From an uncultured bacterium (GTDB lineage Bacteria > Patescibacteriota > Minisyncoccia > Phycocordibacterales > UBA9973), in NCBI GenBank assembly GCA_903892035.1, contig CAITGV010000002.1:65714-129713 (forward strand): a DNA stretch of 64,000 nucleotides, written 5' to 3'. Positions 1,268 through 50,250 of this stretch are shown one piece after another; the first letter of the stretch is position 1; each line of letters opens with the position of its first letter. The notes under the pieces are model-generated. The model was given only the letters and a program-made list of their open reading frames with translations, had not been told where the DNA came from and searched no databases. The translations under genes were made by a program, and so were the position numbers.

Positions 1268-1294
1268 AAACCCAGTGGCTAAACCACTGGGTTT
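1268..1294. repeat. REP-like palindrome family P1 (aaacccagtgg-N5-ccactgggttt), copy a
   Basis: Perfect 11-bp inverted arms with 5-nt spacer; overlaps the stop codon and 3' end of the RAYT-like gene 1279..1950. Confidence 0.8.
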
Positions 1295-1950
1295 ATGGGT
1301 AAATCATCAGGATCCTCAAGAGAAATTTTTCTTCTTTCTTTGCGAATAATCGAAATAATTTCTGTGCAGTGCTTATTAAACTTCATCTTACTATCAAACA
1401 TACTTAATATCCTACGTCCCTCAGTTTGTGCTACAAAATCAAATACTTCATTATCATATTCTTTGTTACTTGAAAAAATTAGGTGTTTTTTATTTTCTGG
1501 AATATCATGTACAAGATAATTTTGATTTACATATGGAAAAATCTTATCAAAATAACTTTGATCATCAATTAGTTTGGATTTAAATGTTCCCTGAAAAAGA
1601 GATCCTGAACGTTTATGCCTATCATTAAAGTAATATGTATATCCACCTAATTTATGCATGAATTTTGCTATTCCACCGTCAATAAGTTGTTTTAAAATAA
1701 AATGATAATGATTTGGATTAAGCGTAAATGCCACAATTGCAACAATAGGTTCATTCTTTTCCAATTCCAGTGGCTTAGCCTCTGTTCTTGGTTTATCCCG
1801 CAGACTGCCAATATTTTCAAAAGTATTAAATTCTATAATACTCTCTTTAAATCGCTCAAGATCTTGGGTATCTAAAAATATGTCCCTTTTGTCTACGCCT
1901 CTATTGTAAATATGAAAATATTCTCCTGTTACTATTTTTTCTCTCCTCAT
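1279..1950 (-). CDS. IS200-like Y1 (HUH) transposase / REP-associated tyrosine transposase (RAYT)-like, copy 1
   Basis: YHIYNRGVDKR motif, HUH motif NHYHFIL, C-terminal GSLFQGTFKSK motif; paralog of 47135..47791; flanked on both sides by the P1 palindrome. Confidence 0.75.
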   Translation of the reverse strand: MRREKIVTGEYFHIYNRGVDKRDIFLDTQDLERFKESIIEFNTFENIGSLRDKPRTEAKPLELEKNEPIVAIVAFTLNPNHYHFILKQLIDGGIAKFMHKLGGYTYYFNDRHKRSGSLFQGTFKSKLIDDQSYFDKIFPYVNQNYLVHDIPENKKHLIFSSNKEYDNEVFDFVAQTEGRRILSMFDSKMKFNKHCTEIISIIRKERRKISLEDPDDLPINPVV

Positions 1951-9588: not shown

Positions 9589-10314
9589 CTAATCGATAAT
9601 TACCGCAATGTGTTCTAAAATCATTTTAACACTAGCGGAGCGGATTTGGAGGAGTTCGCGAGAGTGGGAAATTTCTTGGAAAATAAAAACATCATCTTTT
9701 GTAAATTTGTCGGGAGTTTTTTTGGAAAATAAAAATTGTTCTATTTCATTTACGAGCTCGGTGGCATTTGAGCGAAGGGGCGCGCCACTCTCGTCTTTAT
9801 CGTGAGATTTAACTATTTTTGTAATTTCCAAAAGTCTATCGGCTTTTTTTAAATTCAAAAAATTTACAGCTTGAAGAAAATTATCTTTTACAAAGGGCTC
9901 CCCTTTGTAATTTTCTTTTCTGGCAACGTTTGCACGAGAAATTATCGTATCTGCGACACTACCAAGCGAATTTACAATAAGAAAGAAATGAATATCTTGT
10001 TCTGGCTCTTCAAACATTTTCAAAAGCGCTTGTTCAGCTTCGCGAGTAAATGCTTCTGCACTAAAAATAAAAATTCTAGGATATTCTCCAAATGATTTTT
10101 GATTTTGACGTGAACGAAAAAGTTTTCCTTCATCAACGGTAAAGGACTCATAATGCTCCACAGTTAAATCTGGATTTCCAGCGGTAGGTATTCCCCTATT
10201 TTCTAAACATTTTAAAAGCTCTGGTTCAATATCCTCTTTTTTTCCTTCAATAATATAAAAATGATGCAGGGGTAATTTTTTGTCTGAAAGTGTTTTAAAA
10301 AAATTTTGCATCAA
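9589..10314 (-). CDS. holB: DNA polymerase III delta-prime-like clamp-loader subunit (degenerate P-loop)
   Basis: LLKMFEEP...FFLIVNSLGSVADTIISR matches the LLKTLEEPP...TIRSRC sensor region of HolB; no Walker A. Confidence 0.6.
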   Translation of the reverse strand: MMQNFFKTLSDKKLPLHHFYIIEGKKEDIEPELLKCLENRGIPTAGNPDLTVEHYESFTVDEGKLFRSRQNQKSFGEYPRIFIFSAEAFTREAEQALLKMFEEPEQDIHFFLIVNSLGSVADTIISRANVARKENYKGEPFVKDNFLQAVNFLNLKKADRLLEITKIVKSHDKDESGAPLRSNATELVNEIEQFLFSKKTPDKFTKDDVFIFQEISHSRELLQIRSASVKMILEHIAVIID

Positions 10315-10326
10315 AATATTATAACA

Positions 10327-11367
10327 CTAGCGCTTACTTATAATAGCTTTTTTATAGACATCGAGGTGGTTTAATGCAACTCCAGTTCCTTTTACGACAC
10401 AATATAGTGAGTCCTCGGCAAGACGAGCTTTCACACCAGTTTTACGAAAAACCAATTCTGGAAAACCACGAAGTTGTGATGTTCCGCCAGTCATCGTAAT
10501 ACCTTGATCAATAATGTCGGCAGCAAGCTCTGGTGGAGTATCTGCAAGAACGTCTTTGATAGCTTTTATCATTTGCTTCAATTCTTTATCAATTGCTTTA
10601 ACAATTTCATTTGTTGAAACTTGAGCTTGACGAGGAAGCCCTTGCACAAAGTCTCGTCCTTTTATTGTCGCCGTAATTTCTTCGTCGAGTGGAATAGCTG
10701 CGCCAATTTTCATTTTCACAAATTCTGCTGTCTTGTCACCAATTGCTAAGTTGAAAGTTTTTTTAATGTAATCTGCAATTGCTGCATCAATTTTATCTCC
10801 TGCACATTTTACAGATGTCGAAGAAACAATTCCTCCAAGGGAAATTACAGCAACGTCTGTCGTACCTCCACCGATGTCAACAATCATATGTCCATGCGGT
10901 TCCTGAATTGGAATTCCCGCACCAATAGCTGCAAGAATTGGTTCTTTGACTACGTAAGCATTACGAGCACCAGCGCGTATTGCAGCTTCAACTACAGCGC
11001 GACGCTCAGTTGAAGTGACACCTGCGGGCACCGAAACCATTACATCTGGTTTAAATAAATTCCATTTTCCCAAAGCTTTGCGGATAAAATATCGGAGCAT
11101 TGCTTCGGTGATTCTATAATCTGCAATTACACCGTCTTTCATTGGACGATAAGCAATAATACTATCAGGTGTGCGGCCAACCATTTCTTTTGCTTCAATG
11201 CCAATTGCCAATACTTTATTATCAATTTCAGAAACTGCAACGACAGATGGTTCATTTAAAACAATTCCTTTACCCGGCACAAAAACTAGCGTATTTGCTG
11301 TTCCTAGGTCGATACCCAATTTTTTCGAGAAAAAACTCATATGCGCAAATATAGCACAGAAAAACAT
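10327..11367 (-). CDS. mreB: rod shape-determining protein MreB
   Basis: LGIDLGTANTLV phosphate-1 motif and actin-fold motifs; true start may be the internal Met about 9 codons in. Confidence 0.9.
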   Translation of the reverse strand: MFFCAIFAHMSFFSKKLGIDLGTANTLVFVPGKGIVLNEPSVVAVSEIDNKVLAIGIEAKEMVGRTPDSIIAYRPMKDGVIADYRITEAMLRYFIRKALGKWNLFKPDVMVSVPAGVTSTERRAVVEAAIRAGARNAYVVKEPILAAIGAGIPIQEPHGHMIVDIGGGTTDVAVISLGGIVSSTSVKCAGDKIDAAIADYIKKTFNLAIGDKTAEFVKMKIGAAIPLDEEITATIKGRDFVQGLPRQAQVSTNEIVKAIDKELKQMIKAIKDVLADTPPELAADIIDQGITMTGGTSQLRGFPELVFRKTGVKARLAEDSLYCVVKGTGVALNHLDVYKKAIISKR

Positions 11368-11381
11368 TCAGAGGAAGTCAT

Positions 11382-11432
11382 ATAAATTTGGCGACTAAGT
11401 CCCCAAATGGTGGACTTAGTCGCCAAATTTAT
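11382..11432. repeat. perfect 21-bp inverted repeat (ataaatttggcgactaagtcc-N9-ggacttagtcgccaaatttat) in mreB/priA divergent intergenic region
   Basis: Arms are exact reverse complements, checked base by base; lies between divergent starts at 11367 and 11457. Confidence 0.85.
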
Positions 11433-45248: not shown

Positions 45249-47075
45249 CTATTCATTTCCCCCACTTCTCATCATTTTCAAAAACACTTCGTGAGGTATG
45301 TTTACCTTGCCACTTTCACGCATACGTTTTTTGCCTTTTTTCTGTTTTTCCAAGAGTTTCTTTTTTCGAGAAATATCTCCACCTCCGACAACCTTACTAC
45401 CGTGCATAAGCACGTCTTTTCTAAATGCTGAAAGAGTTCGTGATGAAAGAATTCTTCCTAAAGCATAGCCTTGGATTTTTGTAGAAAATTGTTGTCTTGG
45501 TAGAACACCGTGTAGTTTTTCTACAGCTTGCTCGGCTTCTTCATTGGCTTTCCTGCGTGACACGACACGAGTAAATGCTGGAACAACTTCGTCGGCAATT
45601 AAAATATCTAAACGTGTCACATCAGCTTTTCGAAGTTCTGCCATTTCATAAGAAATCGAAGCGAAACCTGCGGTAGTACTTTTCATTTCATCAAAAAAGT
45701 TTCGCATAAGCTCACGAAGTGGCATTGCAACGTGTATCTGTGAACGGTCTGCTCCAAAGTTTTCAGTCTCTCCAATTTCTGCTTCATGCTCGTAGAAAAG
45801 TTGCATCATGCTACCCAAATATTTTATTGGAGTGATAACCGTAATAGAAACCCAAGGTTCCAATACTTCTTCCATTTCTCCATCGTTTGGAAAAAGATGA
45901 GGCGAATAAACTGTAAGTAATTTTCCATTTCGAAGTTTTACAAAATATGTAATAGATGGAGTTGTAACAACTAACTCAAGATTGAATTCTCGGCGCAAAC
46001 GCTCTGTGACAATTTCCAAGTGAAGCATTCCAAGAAAACCAGCACGAAAACCGCGACCCAAAGAGCCTGAGGATTCTTCTTCAAAAGAAAAAGCTGAATC
46101 AGAAAGTTTCAAGCGAGACAAAGCCATTTTCAATTGATTGAAATCATCTTGACTTTCAGGATAAATTGAGGCCCAAACAACTGGTGTAGGTGTAAAATAT
46201 CCAGGAAATGCGGGCAGGTCACTTTTCCAACCTGTAATTGTATCTCCGACAGATGCAATACCTGGACGTTTGATTCCAGTGACTATGTAACCAATTTCCC
46301 CAGATGATAAAAGTGGTTGAGGTGATTCGTCTGGTGCAAAAGTTCCAACTTCTAGAGAAATAAATTTTTCACCTGCAACTTTAAACATCAATTCTTGATT
46401 TCGTGCCACAGAACCATCCAGAATTCTCACGTAAACAATAACACCCTTATGGTCAGAATATTTAAAATCAAAAACCAAAGCGCGAACATCATTTTTTCCT
46501 GTATAAGTTTCTGTTGGAGGTGGAACTCTTTTTATAACTTCAGATAAAAGTTCTGGAACACCTTCACCAGTTTTTCCTGAAACTAAAAGAATTTCATCAA
46601 GTGAACAATTTAAAAGTGACGCAACTTCAATACGTACTTCATCTACACGCGAAAGCGGTGAGTCGATTTTTGACAATACTGGAATTATCACAAGCCCAGA
46701 TTCGCGCGCCATTGCAAGAGTAGTAAGTGTTTGTGCTTGAACACCTTGAGTTGAATCCACAAGAAGAATTGAACCTTCGACAGCTTTCAGTGCTCGCGAA
46801 ACTTCATAAGAAAAATCAATATGCCCAGGAGTATCGATAAGATTTAATTCATAATCAATACCATCAAATTTATGGCTCATACGCACAGGTTGCATTTTTA
46901 TTGTGATACCGCGTTCACGTTCGAGTTCCATGTTATCTAGCACCTGAGCGCGCATTTTGCGCTTCTCAATGGTATTTGTAACCTCAAGCATTCTATCTGC
47001 CAAAGTACTCTTTCCGTGGTCTATATGAGCAATAATGCTGAAATTGCGTATATTCTGGAGTTCCATAAGCCTCAC
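45249..47075 (-). CDS. lepA: elongation factor 4 (LepA)
   Basis: IIAHIDHGKSTL, DTPGHIDF, LSKID; LepA-specific C-terminal domain. Confidence 0.9.
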   Translation of the reverse strand: MRLMELQNIRNFSIIAHIDHGKSTLADRMLEVTNTIEKRKMRAQVLDNMELERERGITIKMQPVRMSHKFDGIDYELNLIDTPGHIDFSYEVSRALKAVEGSILLVDSTQGVQAQTLTTLAMARESGLVIIPVLSKIDSPLSRVDEVRIEVASLLNCSLDEILLVSGKTGEGVPELLSEVIKRVPPPTETYTGKNDVRALVFDFKYSDHKGVIVYVRILDGSVARNQELMFKVAGEKFISLEVGTFAPDESPQPLLSSGEIGYIVTGIKRPGIASVGDTITGWKSDLPAFPGYFTPTPVVWASIYPESQDDFNQLKMALSRLKLSDSAFSFEEESSGSLGRGFRAGFLGMLHLEIVTERLRREFNLELVVTTPSITYFVKLRNGKLLTVYSPHLFPNDGEMEEVLEPWVSITVITPIKYLGSMMQLFYEHEAEIGETENFGADRSQIHVAMPLRELMRNFFDEMKSTTAGFASISYEMAELRKADVTRLDILIADEVVPAFTRVVSRRKANEEAEQAVEKLHGVLPRQQFSTKIQGYALGRILSSRTLSAFRKDVLMHGSKVVGGGDISRKKKLLEKQKKGKKRMRESGKVNIPHEVFLKMMRSGGNE

Positions 47076-47111
47076 TATAGCAAAAAATGCCTTAAATTAA
47101 AAGCTAACTTT

Positions 47112-47132
47112 TTTGGGAGCTTAGCTCCCAAA
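47112..47132. repeat. REP-like palindrome family P2 (tttgggagc-tta-gctcccaaa), copy a
   Basis: Perfect 9-bp arms, 3 bp after the RAYT copy 2 stop. Confidence 0.8.
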
Positions 47133-47134
47133 TG

Positions 47135-47791
47135 TTAGTCGATGCACACTGATTTAAAATCACTTAAATCTTCCTTTCTTTTTCGAATTAAGGGTAATGT
47201 GTCTTTGGAATATTTAATAAAATCAGAAGAACTTTTAAATTGATCTAGAATAATATCTTTCTTACATATTCCATTTTTTTGCTCACCACTATATTCTGCA
47301 AAACTAGAAAATGGCAACTCCCTCATCCACAACTTGTTCATTCCTTCATGAACCATATTGTTCAAATTCACATAAACACCGAGATACAGTAAATACTCGT
47401 TTGAAGAAATATGCTTGGCTTTGTATGTTCCTTGAAAAAGCGAACCGGAACGGTCATTTTTTTCATTGAAATAATTCGTATACCCGGTAGAAATCCTGTG
47501 CATAAATTTCTGTACACCATTTTCAACCAAAGGCTCAAGAATAAAATGAAAATGATTTTGATTTAGACAGTACGCAATAATATTCACCAACTTTTTGGGA
47601 GCTAAGCTCCCAAATTTGTCATCTTCTCTTGATTTTTCATAAATACTTCCAATTATATCTACTGTATTAAACATCTCCATGCTATTAAGAAATCGTTGAA
47701 GGTCTTCCTTGTCTTCAAAAATATTTCTTTTATCAACACCACGATTATATATATGATAAAACTCACCTTCTTCAAATACTGTGTATCTCAT
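47135..47791 (-). CDS. IS200-like Y1 transposase / RAYT-like, copy 2 (contains an in-frame P2 palindrome)
   Basis: YHIYNRGVDKR, NHFHFIL (HUH), GSLFQGTYKAK motifs; about 45% identical to copy 1. P2 copy at 47594..47614 lies in-frame (encodes KFGSLAPK). Confidence 0.75.
   Translation of the reverse strand: MRYTVFEEGEFYHIYNRGVDKRNIFEDKEDLQRFLNSMEMFNTVDIIGSIYEKSREDDKFGSLAPKKLVNIIAYCLNQNHFHFILEPLVENGVQKFMHRISTGYTNYFNEKNDRSGSLFQGTYKAKHISSNEYLLYLGVYVNLNNMVHEGMNKLWMRELPFSSFAEYSGEQKNGICKKDIILDQFKSSSDFIKYSKDTLPLIRKRKEDLSDFKSVCID
47594..47614. repeat. P2 palindrome copy b (inverse orientation, spacer taa) inside RAYT copy 2 coding sequence
   Basis: tttgggagc-taa-gctcccaaa. Confidence 0.8.
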
Positions 47792-47806
47792 AACAATATT
47801 GTACCA

Positions 47807-47827
47807 TTTGGGAGCTTAGCTCCCAAA
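47807..47827. repeat. P2 palindrome copy c
   Basis: 16 bp upstream of the RAYT copy 2 start, directly after the LysE stop. Confidence 0.8.
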
Positions 47828-47828
47828 T

Positions 47829-48449
47829 TTATTTGAGAAAATAAATTATCTCTGTATATAGTATTTTTAAGGCGAGCAAAAATACTAAAATAGCTAGGGC
47901 CACAAATACTTTTCTAATAACTCTTTCATTCAGCAAAAATTTCCTTAGTGCATTAAAACCAAAAAAGATAATAGTTATCACCACAACCATTGAAATTTCA
48001 AATATTGCTACAAATAGATACTCCCCGTAATGAATACTGCTACCCATACTAAACGCAATAGGAAGACATACGGAAGTCCAATACAACCATAGTGGGCCAT
48101 TAAAAATCATTAACAGAAAAATATGTTTTATGCCAACTTTCTTTTGTTCTTTCGTATAATCAATTTTTCTAATTTTATAAAGCTGTAGTGCAATATACGC
48201 AAGCATCACCACACCAACAAAAGCAAAAATATGAAAAACAACATGCGGAATTTTTAACCAAGAAGAAGTCGCGACAAGTAAAAGGCCGATAAAAAACTCT
48301 GTCAGCCCTGCCACAATAATGTACATTCCCCCATTCACAAGACCCTTTTTAGGTGATCTTAATATTTCAGATAGAGCAATCAAAAGTATCGGACCAGGAG
48401 TAAGCCCACCTATAAATCCTAAAATTATTGTTGTAATGATATCTTTCAT
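47829..48449 (-). CDS. LysE/RhtB-family amino-acid exporter
   Basis: N-terminal GFIGGLTPGPILL motif characteristic of the LysE family; 6 TM. Confidence 0.7.
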   Translation of the reverse strand: MKDIITTIILGFIGGLTPGPILLIALSEILRSPKKGLVNGGMYIIVAGLTEFFIGLLLVATSSWLKIPHVVFHIFAFVGVVMLAYIALQLYKIRKIDYTKEQKKVGIKHIFLLMIFNGPLWLYWTSVCLPIAFSMGSSIHYGEYLFVAIFEISMVVVITIIFFGFNALRKFLLNERVIRKVFVALAILVFLLALKILYTEIIYFLK

Positions 48450-48456
48450 ATTCCTT

Positions 48457-48477
48457 TTGGGAGCTTAGCTCCCAAAT
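48457..48477. repeat. P2 palindrome copy d
   Basis: 8 bp upstream of the LysE start, abutting the ABC transporter stop. Confidence 0.8.
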
Positions 48478-50250
48478 TTATTCGATAAATCCCCCACTTT
48501 GGTGCGCCCAAAGGTCGGCATAAACTCCTTTCTTTTTTAGTAGTTGTTTGTGATTGCCGTCTTCGACAATAGTTCCATTTTCAAGAACAATTATTCTATC
48601 CATTTTTTGAATTGTTGAAAGTCGGTGTGCGATAACAATAACAGTCTTATCTTTCATTAATTCAACTAATGCTTCTTGGATATATGATTCACTTACACTA
48701 TCTAGTGCACTTGTTGCTTCATCAAGCAAAAGTATCGGAGCATTTTTGAGCATTGCACGCGCAATTGCTACACGCTGACGTTCACCACCTGAAAGTTTTA
48801 CACCTCTTTCACCTACAAAAGTTTCATAACCTTTTGGTAATTTAGAAATAAAATCATGAGCATGAGCTTTTTTTGCAACTTCAATAATTTCTTCTTCTGT
48901 CGCATCTGGTTTTCCATATGCAATGTTCTCACGAATTGTACGATGAAATAAAACTGATTCTTGTGGTACATACGAAATCATACTCCTTAAGTCATCCTGC
49001 AATACATTACGAATATCCTGATCATCTATAGTTATGCTTCCTTTGGTCACATCCATAAAACGCAAAATTAAATTTGTAATTGTAGATTTTCCAGCACCGG
49101 AGTGCCCAACAATTCCAATTCGCTGTCCGTGCGGTATATCTAAAGTAAAATTTGAAAATATTTCAGTATTATTTCCATAATCAAAAGATACATCACTAAA
49201 TTGCAAATTACCTTTTTGCATTTTTAATACTTCCGGATTTATTGGGTCCTCAATATCAGACTTAATTTCAAAAATATCAATCATTTCTTTCATATCTGCA
49301 CCAGCTTTCATAAATTTTGTAAGAGAGTTACCAAAATCCCAAAGTTTATCAAAAATAACAACAATAAAACCCTGTACCAATACAATAGTTCCTGTAGTAA
49401 TTTTATTATTTAGCCAAAGATGAACCATTACATATAAAAGTGAACCTTGAACAATAAATGCTAGAACTGCCTGAATGACTTCAATTTTCCCGGCAAGAAA
49501 CCAAGCTTTTCTACTTTTAATTGAAGCATCCTCAGTAATTTCTTTAAATGAATTGGTTTCAGATTTGGTTGCAGAAAATATTTTAACAGCAAGAATATTT
49601 CCAAATATATCAGCAAGGCGTCCGCTTATACTCGAATCAGATGCTGCTTCAATCACATCATATTTAATTTTTCTACGTAAAAAGAAAGCAATGATACTAA
49701 AATAAATTAATACCCATATTAAAAAGAAAAAGGATATTATTACTGAAGTCTTACCTAAAACAATAAAAACACCAACTAAAACTATAAATGTTGACCAGAA
49801 ATTAAAAAGCAAAATATCAAACATTGTTTCAAATGACCCAACAAATCGACGTGACTTTGTCACCAAAGAACCAGAAAAAGTATTTGCAAAAAAAGTTTGT
49901 GAGTGATATTGAATTTTTTTTAATGAAAAATTACGTAATTCTTTTATTACATTTATCTCAAAGGCGAAAAAAATAAACTTACAGACTCTAGCAGTAATTG
50001 TAGTTAGCAAACTTATAAAAATAATAGTCACAACCAAAATTAGTAGCCCATGAGATAAGTCAGCTTTATTTGTAACATTTTCAGACAATGTATCTATAAT
50101 TTTCTTAAAATAAAAGGGTCTTATTATATATTCAAGTGTAGTTCTAATTCCAAATATTATAAATATTGCATAAAAAGAGCCACGATATTTTCGCATTTGT
50201 GGCCATATGTATTTATATATTTTTTTAAACATTACAAAATTATAACACAA
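48478..50250 (-). CDS. ABC exporter, fused permease/ATPase (MsbA-like)
   Basis: 6-TM domain plus GHSGAGKST Walker A, LSGGERQRVAIARA signature, LLLDEATSALD Walker B. Confidence 0.85.
   Translation of the reverse strand: MCYNFVMFKKIYKYIWPQMRKYRGSFYAIFIIFGIRTTLEYIIRPFYFKKIIDTLSENVTNKADLSHGLLILVVTIIFISLLTTITARVCKFIFFAFEINVIKELRNFSLKKIQYHSQTFFANTFSGSLVTKSRRFVGSFETMFDILLFNFWSTFIVLVGVFIVLGKTSVIISFFFLIWVLIYFSIIAFFLRRKIKYDVIEAASDSSISGRLADIFGNILAVKIFSATKSETNSFKEITEDASIKSRKAWFLAGKIEVIQAVLAFIVQGSLLYVMVHLWLNNKITTGTIVLVQGFIVVIFDKLWDFGNSLTKFMKAGADMKEMIDIFEIKSDIEDPINPEVLKMQKGNLQFSDVSFDYGNNTEIFSNFTLDIPHGQRIGIVGHSGAGKSTITNLILRFMDVTKGSITIDDQDIRNVLQDDLRSMISYVPQESVLFHRTIRENIAYGKPDATEEEIIEVAKKAHAHDFISKLPKGYETFVGERGVKLSGGERQRVAIARAMLKNAPILLLDEATSALDSVSESYIQEALVELMKDKTVIVIAHRLSTIQKMDRIIVLENGTIVEDGNHKQLLKKKGVYADLWAHQSGGFIE

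Follow-up and report, generated by a model that had tools for sequence, protein, structure and literature searches.

Why is a gene for a transposase-like enzyme set among copies of one short palindrome, and why does one copy lie inside the gene itself? The question is raised by a locus in an uncultured Patescibacteriota bacterium (GenBank assembly GCA_903892035.1, contig CAITGV010000002.1, positions 65,714 to 129,713 of the forward strand), a stretch of 64,000 nucleotides (nt) that was analysed whole and is called the window below. At 47135..47791 on the minus strand it encodes a Y1/HUH protein of 218 amino acids (aa), identified from Pfam, sequence motifs, an AlphaFold2 (AF2) model and Foldseek, which resembles the REP-associated tyrosine transposases (RAYTs, or TnpAREP); four copies of a 21-bp palindrome, P2, accompany it. 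An earlier note made from the sequence alone had described the locus as akin to a REPtron, that is, a RAYT gene with its own repetitive extragenic palindrome (REP) hairpins, and had suggested self-targeting or gene capture from its unusual features. Our analysis indicates that the locus is probably a vertically inherited unit of the REPtron type, made of a domesticated RAYT-like enzyme and a private cognate REP-like hairpin.

Exact matching confirmed the four copies in the window: P2 reads TTTGGGAGC-TWA-GCTCCCAAA (exact pattern TTTGGGAGCNNNGCTCCCAAA), and the number of matches expected from shuffles is 0. Copy a (47112-47132, loop TTA), the downstream (D) hairpin, lies 2 nt 3' of the Y1 stop codon and is extendable by an outer stem CTAAC/GTTAG, whilst copy c (47807-47827, loop TTA), the upstream (U) hairpin, lies 15 nt 5' of the Y1 ATG. 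Copy b (47594-47614, loop TAA) is in frame within the Y1 open reading frame (ORF), at nt 178-198 or codons 60-66, a site we call S1. Copy d (48456-48476, loop TTA) is a stray one: it stands in the 28 nt that separate the stop codon of an ATP-binding cassette (ABC) transporter gene from the start of a LysE-like gene. Copies a and c bracket the Y1 gene and copies c and d the LysE-like ORF, as the earlier note had it; three of its four positions were right, and the fourth, given as 48457, was one too high. As single-stranded DNA, each copy folds at -9.2 to -10 kcal/mol (z = -4.2 to -5.3). No further copy was found in the window at up to 3 mismatches, nor was P2 present beyond its 1.4-kb cluster in the source contig, read to 80.3 kb in total (two 10-kb extensions, of which ~16 kb was new).

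Copy b is translated as F60-G-S-L-A-P-K66, with K59 just before it, and on the coding strand the loop supplies the Leu codon TTA. It is inverted relative to copies a, c and d because the S1 frame requires the loop codon TTA; in the orientation of the other copies the loop would read TAA, an in-frame stop. Copies c and d have in common a 7-nt 5' flank, AATAAAT, beyond the palindrome (coding strand; 47799-47835 and 48448-48484), which may delimit the unit that is truly copied or may be chance in AT-rich DNA. A sense-strand terminator role for the hairpins was considered and rejected: T-rich tails are found here only on the antisense (+) strand, and tails are inconsistent among homologs. A search against Rfam gave a single sub-threshold chance match, NsiR1.

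The protein itself scores above the gathering cut-off of Pfam PF01797 Y1_Tnp (32.5 bits, cut-off 23, E 1.1e-7). It carries an HUH motif (NHFH; H80, H82), a tyrosine motif (Y140-VNLNN) and a C-terminal tail with an 'SS' motif (PFSSF), and residues H80, H82, N142, N144 and H148 are invariant in the homolog alignment. A search of the PDB with a sequence profile of the protein returned nothing relevant. For the AF2 model (pLDDT 85, pTM 0.83), the top Foldseek match was 4er8_A, the E. coli RAYT with bound REP hairpin (E 1e-4), followed by ISHp608 and ISDra2 TnpA, and the fold matches 4er8, 2a6o and 2xm3. The motifs and the model together suggest a catalytically intact single-stranded DNA nuclease or transferase, whose predicted fold is nearest RAYT/TnpAREP. 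In the model, S1 (aa 60-66) forms the loop leading from helix 50-60 to strand 69-76; S2, a second in-frame site described below, lies past the Tyr helix. The two sites would thereby flank the catalytic core, at loops joining structural modules.

The same arrangement recurs in the window with a different hairpin sequence, P1, at a second Y1 paralog (223 aa, 1279..1950, minus strand) that is 43% identical to the 218-aa protein. The upstream P1 hairpin, AAAACCCAGTGGC-TAA-GCCACTGGGTTTT (1971-1999), is followed on the minus strand by TGgTAGAAT at 1961-1969. A decayed in-frame copy, CCAGTGGC-TTA-GCCTCTG (1767-1784, ORF nt 167-184, -5.8 kcal/mol), occupies the same S1 site as copy b, and in a variant downstream hairpin (1268-1294) the loop holds the stop codon and the left arm codes the final protein residues. 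With a Y1/HUH gene flanked by its own palindrome, a best fold match to 4er8 and a window paralog with a palindrome of its own, the description of the locus as REPtron-like is borne out.

How general is this layout? Database relatives of the 218-aa protein number 3570, nearly all from Patescibacteria (Nomurabacteria, Paceibacteria, Giovannonibacteria etc.). For comparison we used 79 loci from species-representative genomes (individual loci and contigs carry L numbers below), in which 62 Y1 genes were parsed, the two window paralogs included. All 62 retain intact NH[YF]H and Y[VI]NLNx motifs (x = N, D, F, Y or H), and the FQG and tail 'SS' motifs are nearly universal. At least two copies of one locus-specific perfect palindrome are present in 51/62 genes, at four sites: U, ~13 nt 5' of the ATG and within the promoter; S1, at ORF nt ~170-185, in frame ahead of the HUH strand; S2, at ORF nt ~436-480, in frame past the Tyr helix; and D, 0-16 nt 3' of the stop codon or overlapping it. 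Most of the 62 homologs have both U and D copies, as do P1 and P2, and the gene is thus flanked by one hairpin family. The consensus is a 'double-foot' palindrome in which (C)ACTTGG and CCAAGT(G) enclose 4 variable bp on either side of a 3-5 nt loop; the foot, conserved as (Y)TTGG/CCAA(R), is (A)CTTGG/CCAAG(T) or TTTGG/CCAAA.

Within the ORF the hairpin centre falls at codon position 2 at 31/32 S1 sites and 26/26 S2 sites, compared with all three frames for hairpins under ORF ends. This fixed frame shows that S1 and S2 are old, fixed sites and not the outcome of repeated random insertions. In an alignment of 41 relatives the segment opposite KFGSLAPK reads KLGSSAPK, QFGSLASK, KLRSLASK or KPRGRASR, its residues co-varying as palindromic codons; only a remnant peptide and a decayed palindrome are left in L016, L032 and the P1 paralog. 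The orientation of U and D copies relative to in-ORF copies is mixed. The in-frame copy had been taken for an oddity and a sign of self-targeting; the alignment places it instead at a conserved family site with varied palindromic codons, in no way peculiar to this gene, and in-frame REPs had already been published (PMC6006769). Destructive self-targeting through copy b, like the gene capture considered further on, is extremely improbable: the Y1 gene is undamaged, and copy b occupies an ancient in-frame site that the family conserves.

At 9/79 loci (L003, L005, L018, L031, L033, L043, L058, L072 and L077) the first Y1 gene has another, divergent paralog within 10 kb; by tblastn these second paralogs are 28-53% identical to the window protein. 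Y1 paralogs thus tend to cluster, as they do in the window, where the two are 45 kb apart.

Do the hairpins of one locus evolve together? The in-ORF hairpins of 38 loci align as a single helix that is 96% paired, a percentage that is partly circular, since the hairpins were chosen as palindromic; double changes occur in 9/10 pairs, and the 76 compensatory cells were reached by 0/500 shuffles. The meaningful outcome of this covariation is that one site holds many different palindromes. G-U cells make up only 2/380, and this near-absence points to strict DNA complementarity and not to RNA-level selection. Among copies within one locus stem identity is 93%, with 73% of pairs identical, against 65% and 3% between loci at the same site; the much closer match within loci indicates concerted evolution. 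Syntenic orthologs can have different hairpins, for example CCCCAGACAC.. in L042 vs CACTTGGAGGC.. in L025. Some loci are mixed: in L034 the U and S1 copies are of one hairpin type and S2 and D of another, and in L012, L040 and L046 the 5' and 3' copies likewise differ in type. Such loci show copy-by-copy hairpin turnover, and may be replacement intermediates or products of paralog recombination.

The Y1 gene is kept between the same housekeeping neighbours in several ortholog groups (L016/18/22, L004/7/8, L001/2, L035/53 and L012/31), and in a seven-member ortholog group next to rsmA the Y1 identity goes down to 48%. Flanking proteins in syntenic ortholog groups are 50-90% identical. Such syntenic orthologs imply vertical inheritance, and they bear directly on whether the locus is an autonomous IS200-like insertion sequence, with the flanking hairpins as its subterminal ends and a ~720-bp unit transposing whole. 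A hairpin on each side of a Y1 gene, combined with the Y1 transposase fold, is formally the minimal layout of IS200 (IS200/IS605 family, subclass 1.1; PMC8266576), and there are several divergent paralogs per genome (28-43% identity); yet the two window copies, just 43% identical, have different hairpins, and no identical or near-identical copies were found. The LepA/LysE context of this copy, found at no homolog locus, also speaks for such an element, whereas orthologs elsewhere remain at the same chromosomal site even at the lowest Y1 identity. The upstream hairpin is moreover integrated in the promoter, the neighbours lie only 0-30 nt away, and the motif is Y-V-N-L-N and not the Y---Q of IS200 (PMC6006769 Table 1). 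We therefore consider an IS200-like element very unlikely.

What might the upstream copy do? A promoter scanner identified a promoter-like site, TTGGGA-17 nt-TACAAT with TG at -15/-14, at 47798..47826 on the minus strand, to which copy c supplies the -35 and spacer part; the ATG lies 6 nt past the -10 hexamer. The upstream regions of the homologs align as CACTTGG..CCAAGTG-n-TAnAAT-6 nt-ATG, in which a TTGGnn -35 comes from the left foot and the TG of an extended -10 (TGnTAnAAT) from the right, with 17 nt of spacer. A -10 hexamer matching at least 5/6 positions is present in 41/60 Y1 genes; 27 of these 41 end exactly 6 nt ahead of the ATG and 29 have the TG. Such a hexamer was found in 25% of control ORFs (n=889), and hexamer plus TG in 11%. 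From the ATG lying 6 nt past the hexamer, we infer that the Y1 mRNA is leaderless. In the controls, a TGnTAnAAT-like -10 precedes the first ATG by 5-9 nt in 25% of the 889 ORFs, and leaderless-type promoters look common in these genomes. At positions 40, 3279 and 4047 of L011, a cassette of hairpin and 'TGGTATAAT' promoter occurs three times ahead of different genes, a hint that hairpin and promoter may move together.

These promoter data invite a purely regulatory explanation, in which the palindromes would be double-stranded DNA operators for a dimeric regulator (possibly the Y1 tail), or hairpins acting on mRNA stability or pausing, and the enzyme would neither cut nor copy them. Their perfect two-fold symmetry fits a dimer, the U copy overlaps the -35 and spacer of a conserved promoter, and the D copy is right at the stop codon; however, regulation alone gives no reason why an identical sequence at 3-4 sites should be renewed in concert, on both arms. 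Hairpins working in mRNA are at odds with the scarcity of G-U pairs, and an idle enzyme with the invariance of its catalytic HUH and Tyr residues and with the multiplication of the same hairpin in intergenic DNA elsewhere. Regulation as the whole explanation is thus unlikely. It is compatible with the REPtron-type unit as an added role of the U copy, which probably gives the Y1 protein a handle on its own transcription.

Is the hairpin confined to its gene? Copies of the cognate hairpin, pooled over 54 loci and counted by distance from the ORF, have a density of 8.5 per kb at up to 100 nt, 0.15 per kb at 100-500 nt, 0.03 per kb at 1-5 kb and 0.003 per kb at 5-10 kb, a ~2500-fold drop within 10 kb of the gene. 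Stray copies like copy d occur in adjacent spacers of several other loci, ahead of unrelated genes. Nearby second Y1 genes were checked as a source of the distant stray copies in L011, L021, L039 and L047, and ruled out.

Elsewhere, the same sequence is dispersed. The exact P2 21-mer matched 46 stretches in a metagenome-contig collection, and sample Ga0265297 (31-42% GC; among L086-L127) contains 29 P2 copies, counted at up to 2 mismatches, over 157 kb, nearly all intergenic. These copies have extended feet, cccATG..CATggg (e.g. L116 at 1574, 6993, 10739 and 11224; L090 at 5541, 5599 and 10206-10328), and three of them form a 51-nt tandem array. A Y1 gene of 246 aa (L116 11284..12024), a relative with 37% identity, the classical YLHFNP motif and no in-ORF hairpin, has one of the copies 40 nt upstream of it. 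A P2-type hairpin can thus proliferate like a REP, in keeping with the REP-like nature that the earlier note had assigned to it; the source contig shows no such spread, the 21-mer being absent from the other ~79 kb of it that were read, and high-copy REP status in this genome is not shown. The same 21-mer was also seen in contigs of ~50% GC with feet CCCCCA..TGGGGG (L082-L126, samples Ga0066639 and Ga0210057), several copies being inside long ORFs; these could belong to a distinct REP family or have been inserted in frame in a different organism. Within the window, a perfect inverted repeat with a 21-bp stem and a 9-nt loop (11382-11432), in a divergent mreB/priA-like spacer, has an outer stem, TTTGGCGAC/GTCGCCAAA, like the Y1-family foot (compare L079), and may be an orphan or composite REP-like element.

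Does the unit extend to the neighbouring genes? Every gene around the P2 locus is encoded on the minus strand. The probable start of lepA (45249..47075) is the ATG at 47066 (MELQ..), 7 nt behind TGcTATAGT (window 47066-47082). The LysE-like membrane protein gene (206 aa, 47829..48449), bracketed by copies c and d, lies between the Y1 gene and the ABC transporter gene (48478..50250). Its identification as a LysE exporter held in part: the ORF resembles LysE, and its Pfam LysE score of 22.2 bits is under the cut-off of 25.6, which leaves it LysE-like only. REP-mediated capture of this gene between copies c and d had been proposed, and the bracketing copies with their common 7-nt flank would suit it; nevertheless, neither LysE nor LepA is found beside the Y1 gene in any of the 79 homolog loci, and stray copies at other loci likewise stand in adjacent spacers before genes of unrelated kinds. 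Capture, sharing the very low probability given to self-targeting above, did not survive this comparison. The layout is a real REPtron variant and not a gene capture, and the LysE-like gene is counted as a neighbour rather than as part of the hairpin unit.

To which known system is the unit closest? Like REPtrons (E. coli TnpAREP, PDB 4ER8; Nunvar 2010, Ton-Hoang 2012, Bertels & Rainey 2011), it combines a Y1/HUH fold with the gene's own flanking hairpin, one hairpin family per paralog, vertical, housekeeping-like inheritance and putative protein-hairpin co-evolution. Unlike them, it has short perfect double-foot palindromes without the GT[AG]G tag, a Y motif without NP, an upstream copy within the promoter, and hairpins almost confined to the gene, where REPtrons have hundreds of genomic copies. 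Comparisons with two further subclasses were made by published motif and hairpin descriptions. In TnpAY1 subclass 2.4 (Bertels group 4), REPs in frame within tnpAREP genes have been reported (Quentin 2018; PMC6006769), and double-foot palindromes and a ~8-aa insertion at the end of helix alpha-B, where S1 sits here, are further likenesses. That subclass has insertions of variable length, mainly between HuH and Y, feet of GT[AG]G/C[TC]AC, WQ and YIxNNP motifs and no tail, and occurs in cyanobacteria and Bacteroidetes; here, by contrast, the sites are fixed and outside the HuH-Y interval, one preceding HUH and the other following Y; FQ and Y[VI]NLN are the motifs, joined by an SS tail, and the hosts are Patescibacteria. 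With subclass 2.1/TIRYT (Bertels group 1), the proteins, which likewise measure ~220-240 aa, have in common NH[YF]H, FQ, Y[IV]xLN and a proximal 'SS' motif in the tail. Subclass 2.1 is described as having Y[IV]HLNP, an SS tail with a distal domain, and either no REP-like sequences or, in their stead, terminal inverted repeats (TIRs), whereas here the NP is missing and hairpins are present at nearly every locus.

Rickettsia palindromic elements (RPEs), reportedly described by Ogata in 2000, are in-frame palindromic repeats in protein-coding genes. As with RPEs and intragenic REPs (Di Nocera 2013, PMC3733652), in-frame palindromic repeats are tolerated here in loops of coding genes; those elements sit in many unrelated genes, whereas here the gene is that of the presumed cognate enzyme, the sites are conserved and turnover is concerted. 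What is new, then, is a Patescibacteria clade with motifs nearest subclass 2.1, which was described without REPs, together with fixed in-frame sites on both sides of the catalytic core, a promoter-embedded copy, near-confinement and concerted turnover at syntenic loci. An incomplete literature search found no earlier paper on such units in bacteria of the candidate phyla radiation (CPR).

How could such a unit work? TnpAREP cuts and strand-transfers cognate REP hairpins, perfect palindromes included (PMC8266576), and it is from this known chemistry that we infer a copying mechanism. The Y1 enzyme would bind and cut its hairpins in single-stranded DNA, and strand transfer or cleavage-stimulated repair would overwrite one hairpin with another, site by site. 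Copying of this kind would maintain uniformity among the hairpins of each locus and let those of different species diverge; now and then it would also place copies in neighbouring spacers (copy d) or, in some genomes, all over the genome. The in-frame copies would occupy permissive surface loops, one ahead of the HUH strand (S1) and one beyond the Tyr helix (S2).

Several points weigh against a REPtron-type unit, in addition to the partial circularity of the pairing figure. The 218-aa protein scores only 23.3 bits against the equivalog NCBIfam NF047646 REP_Tyr_transpos, below its cut-off of 80; the proline of the class-2 Y---NP signature (Quentin 2018) occurs in 0/62 Y1 genes; and the canonical REP guide tetranucleotide GT[AG]G is absent from the foot. 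Biochemical activity has been shown in no member of this Y1 clade. In the 80.3 kb of source contig the hairpins are not dispersed and REP mobilisation is not evident, and in the other metagenome the dispersed 21-mer is tied to a Y1 gene by one adjacency only. Lastly, ordinary gene conversion or template switching, without the enzyme, could yield concerted evolution. With these points counted, we still hold the domesticated enzyme with its private hairpin to be the probable account.

A bolder version, which we put forward tentatively as a possibility, is that the unit is self-referential: the enzyme's main substrates would be the hairpins of its own gene, and it would maintain and regulate itself, rarely bursting into a genome-wide REP family. 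The in-frame copies would then be 'master' copies guarded by selection, as their loss would damage the protein, and the copy in the promoter would act as an operator. Hairpins would be replaced one site after another through Y1-catalysed cleavage and strand transfer. If this is true, the unit would represent a minimal, ancestral or terminal RAYT-REP state, tractable for learning what RAYTs actually do.

There is as yet no settled account of how RAYT/TnpAREP proteins copy REP hairpins or of why hosts retain these enzymes. Here, in a clade of thousands in Patescibacteria, the partnership is cut down to a single gene whose 3-5 hairpins stand at fixed positions that can be aligned. With fixed positions, vertical inheritance and visible copy-by-copy turnover, hairpin replacement becomes countable on a tree and testable in vitro with 21-nt substrates, and this single contig yields two putatively orthogonal enzyme/hairpin pairs, P1 and P2. 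Subclass 2.4 is not alone in having in-frame REPs in the cognate gene, and a REP foot can serve too as the promoter elements (-35 TTG, extended -10 TG) of a predicted leaderless gene.

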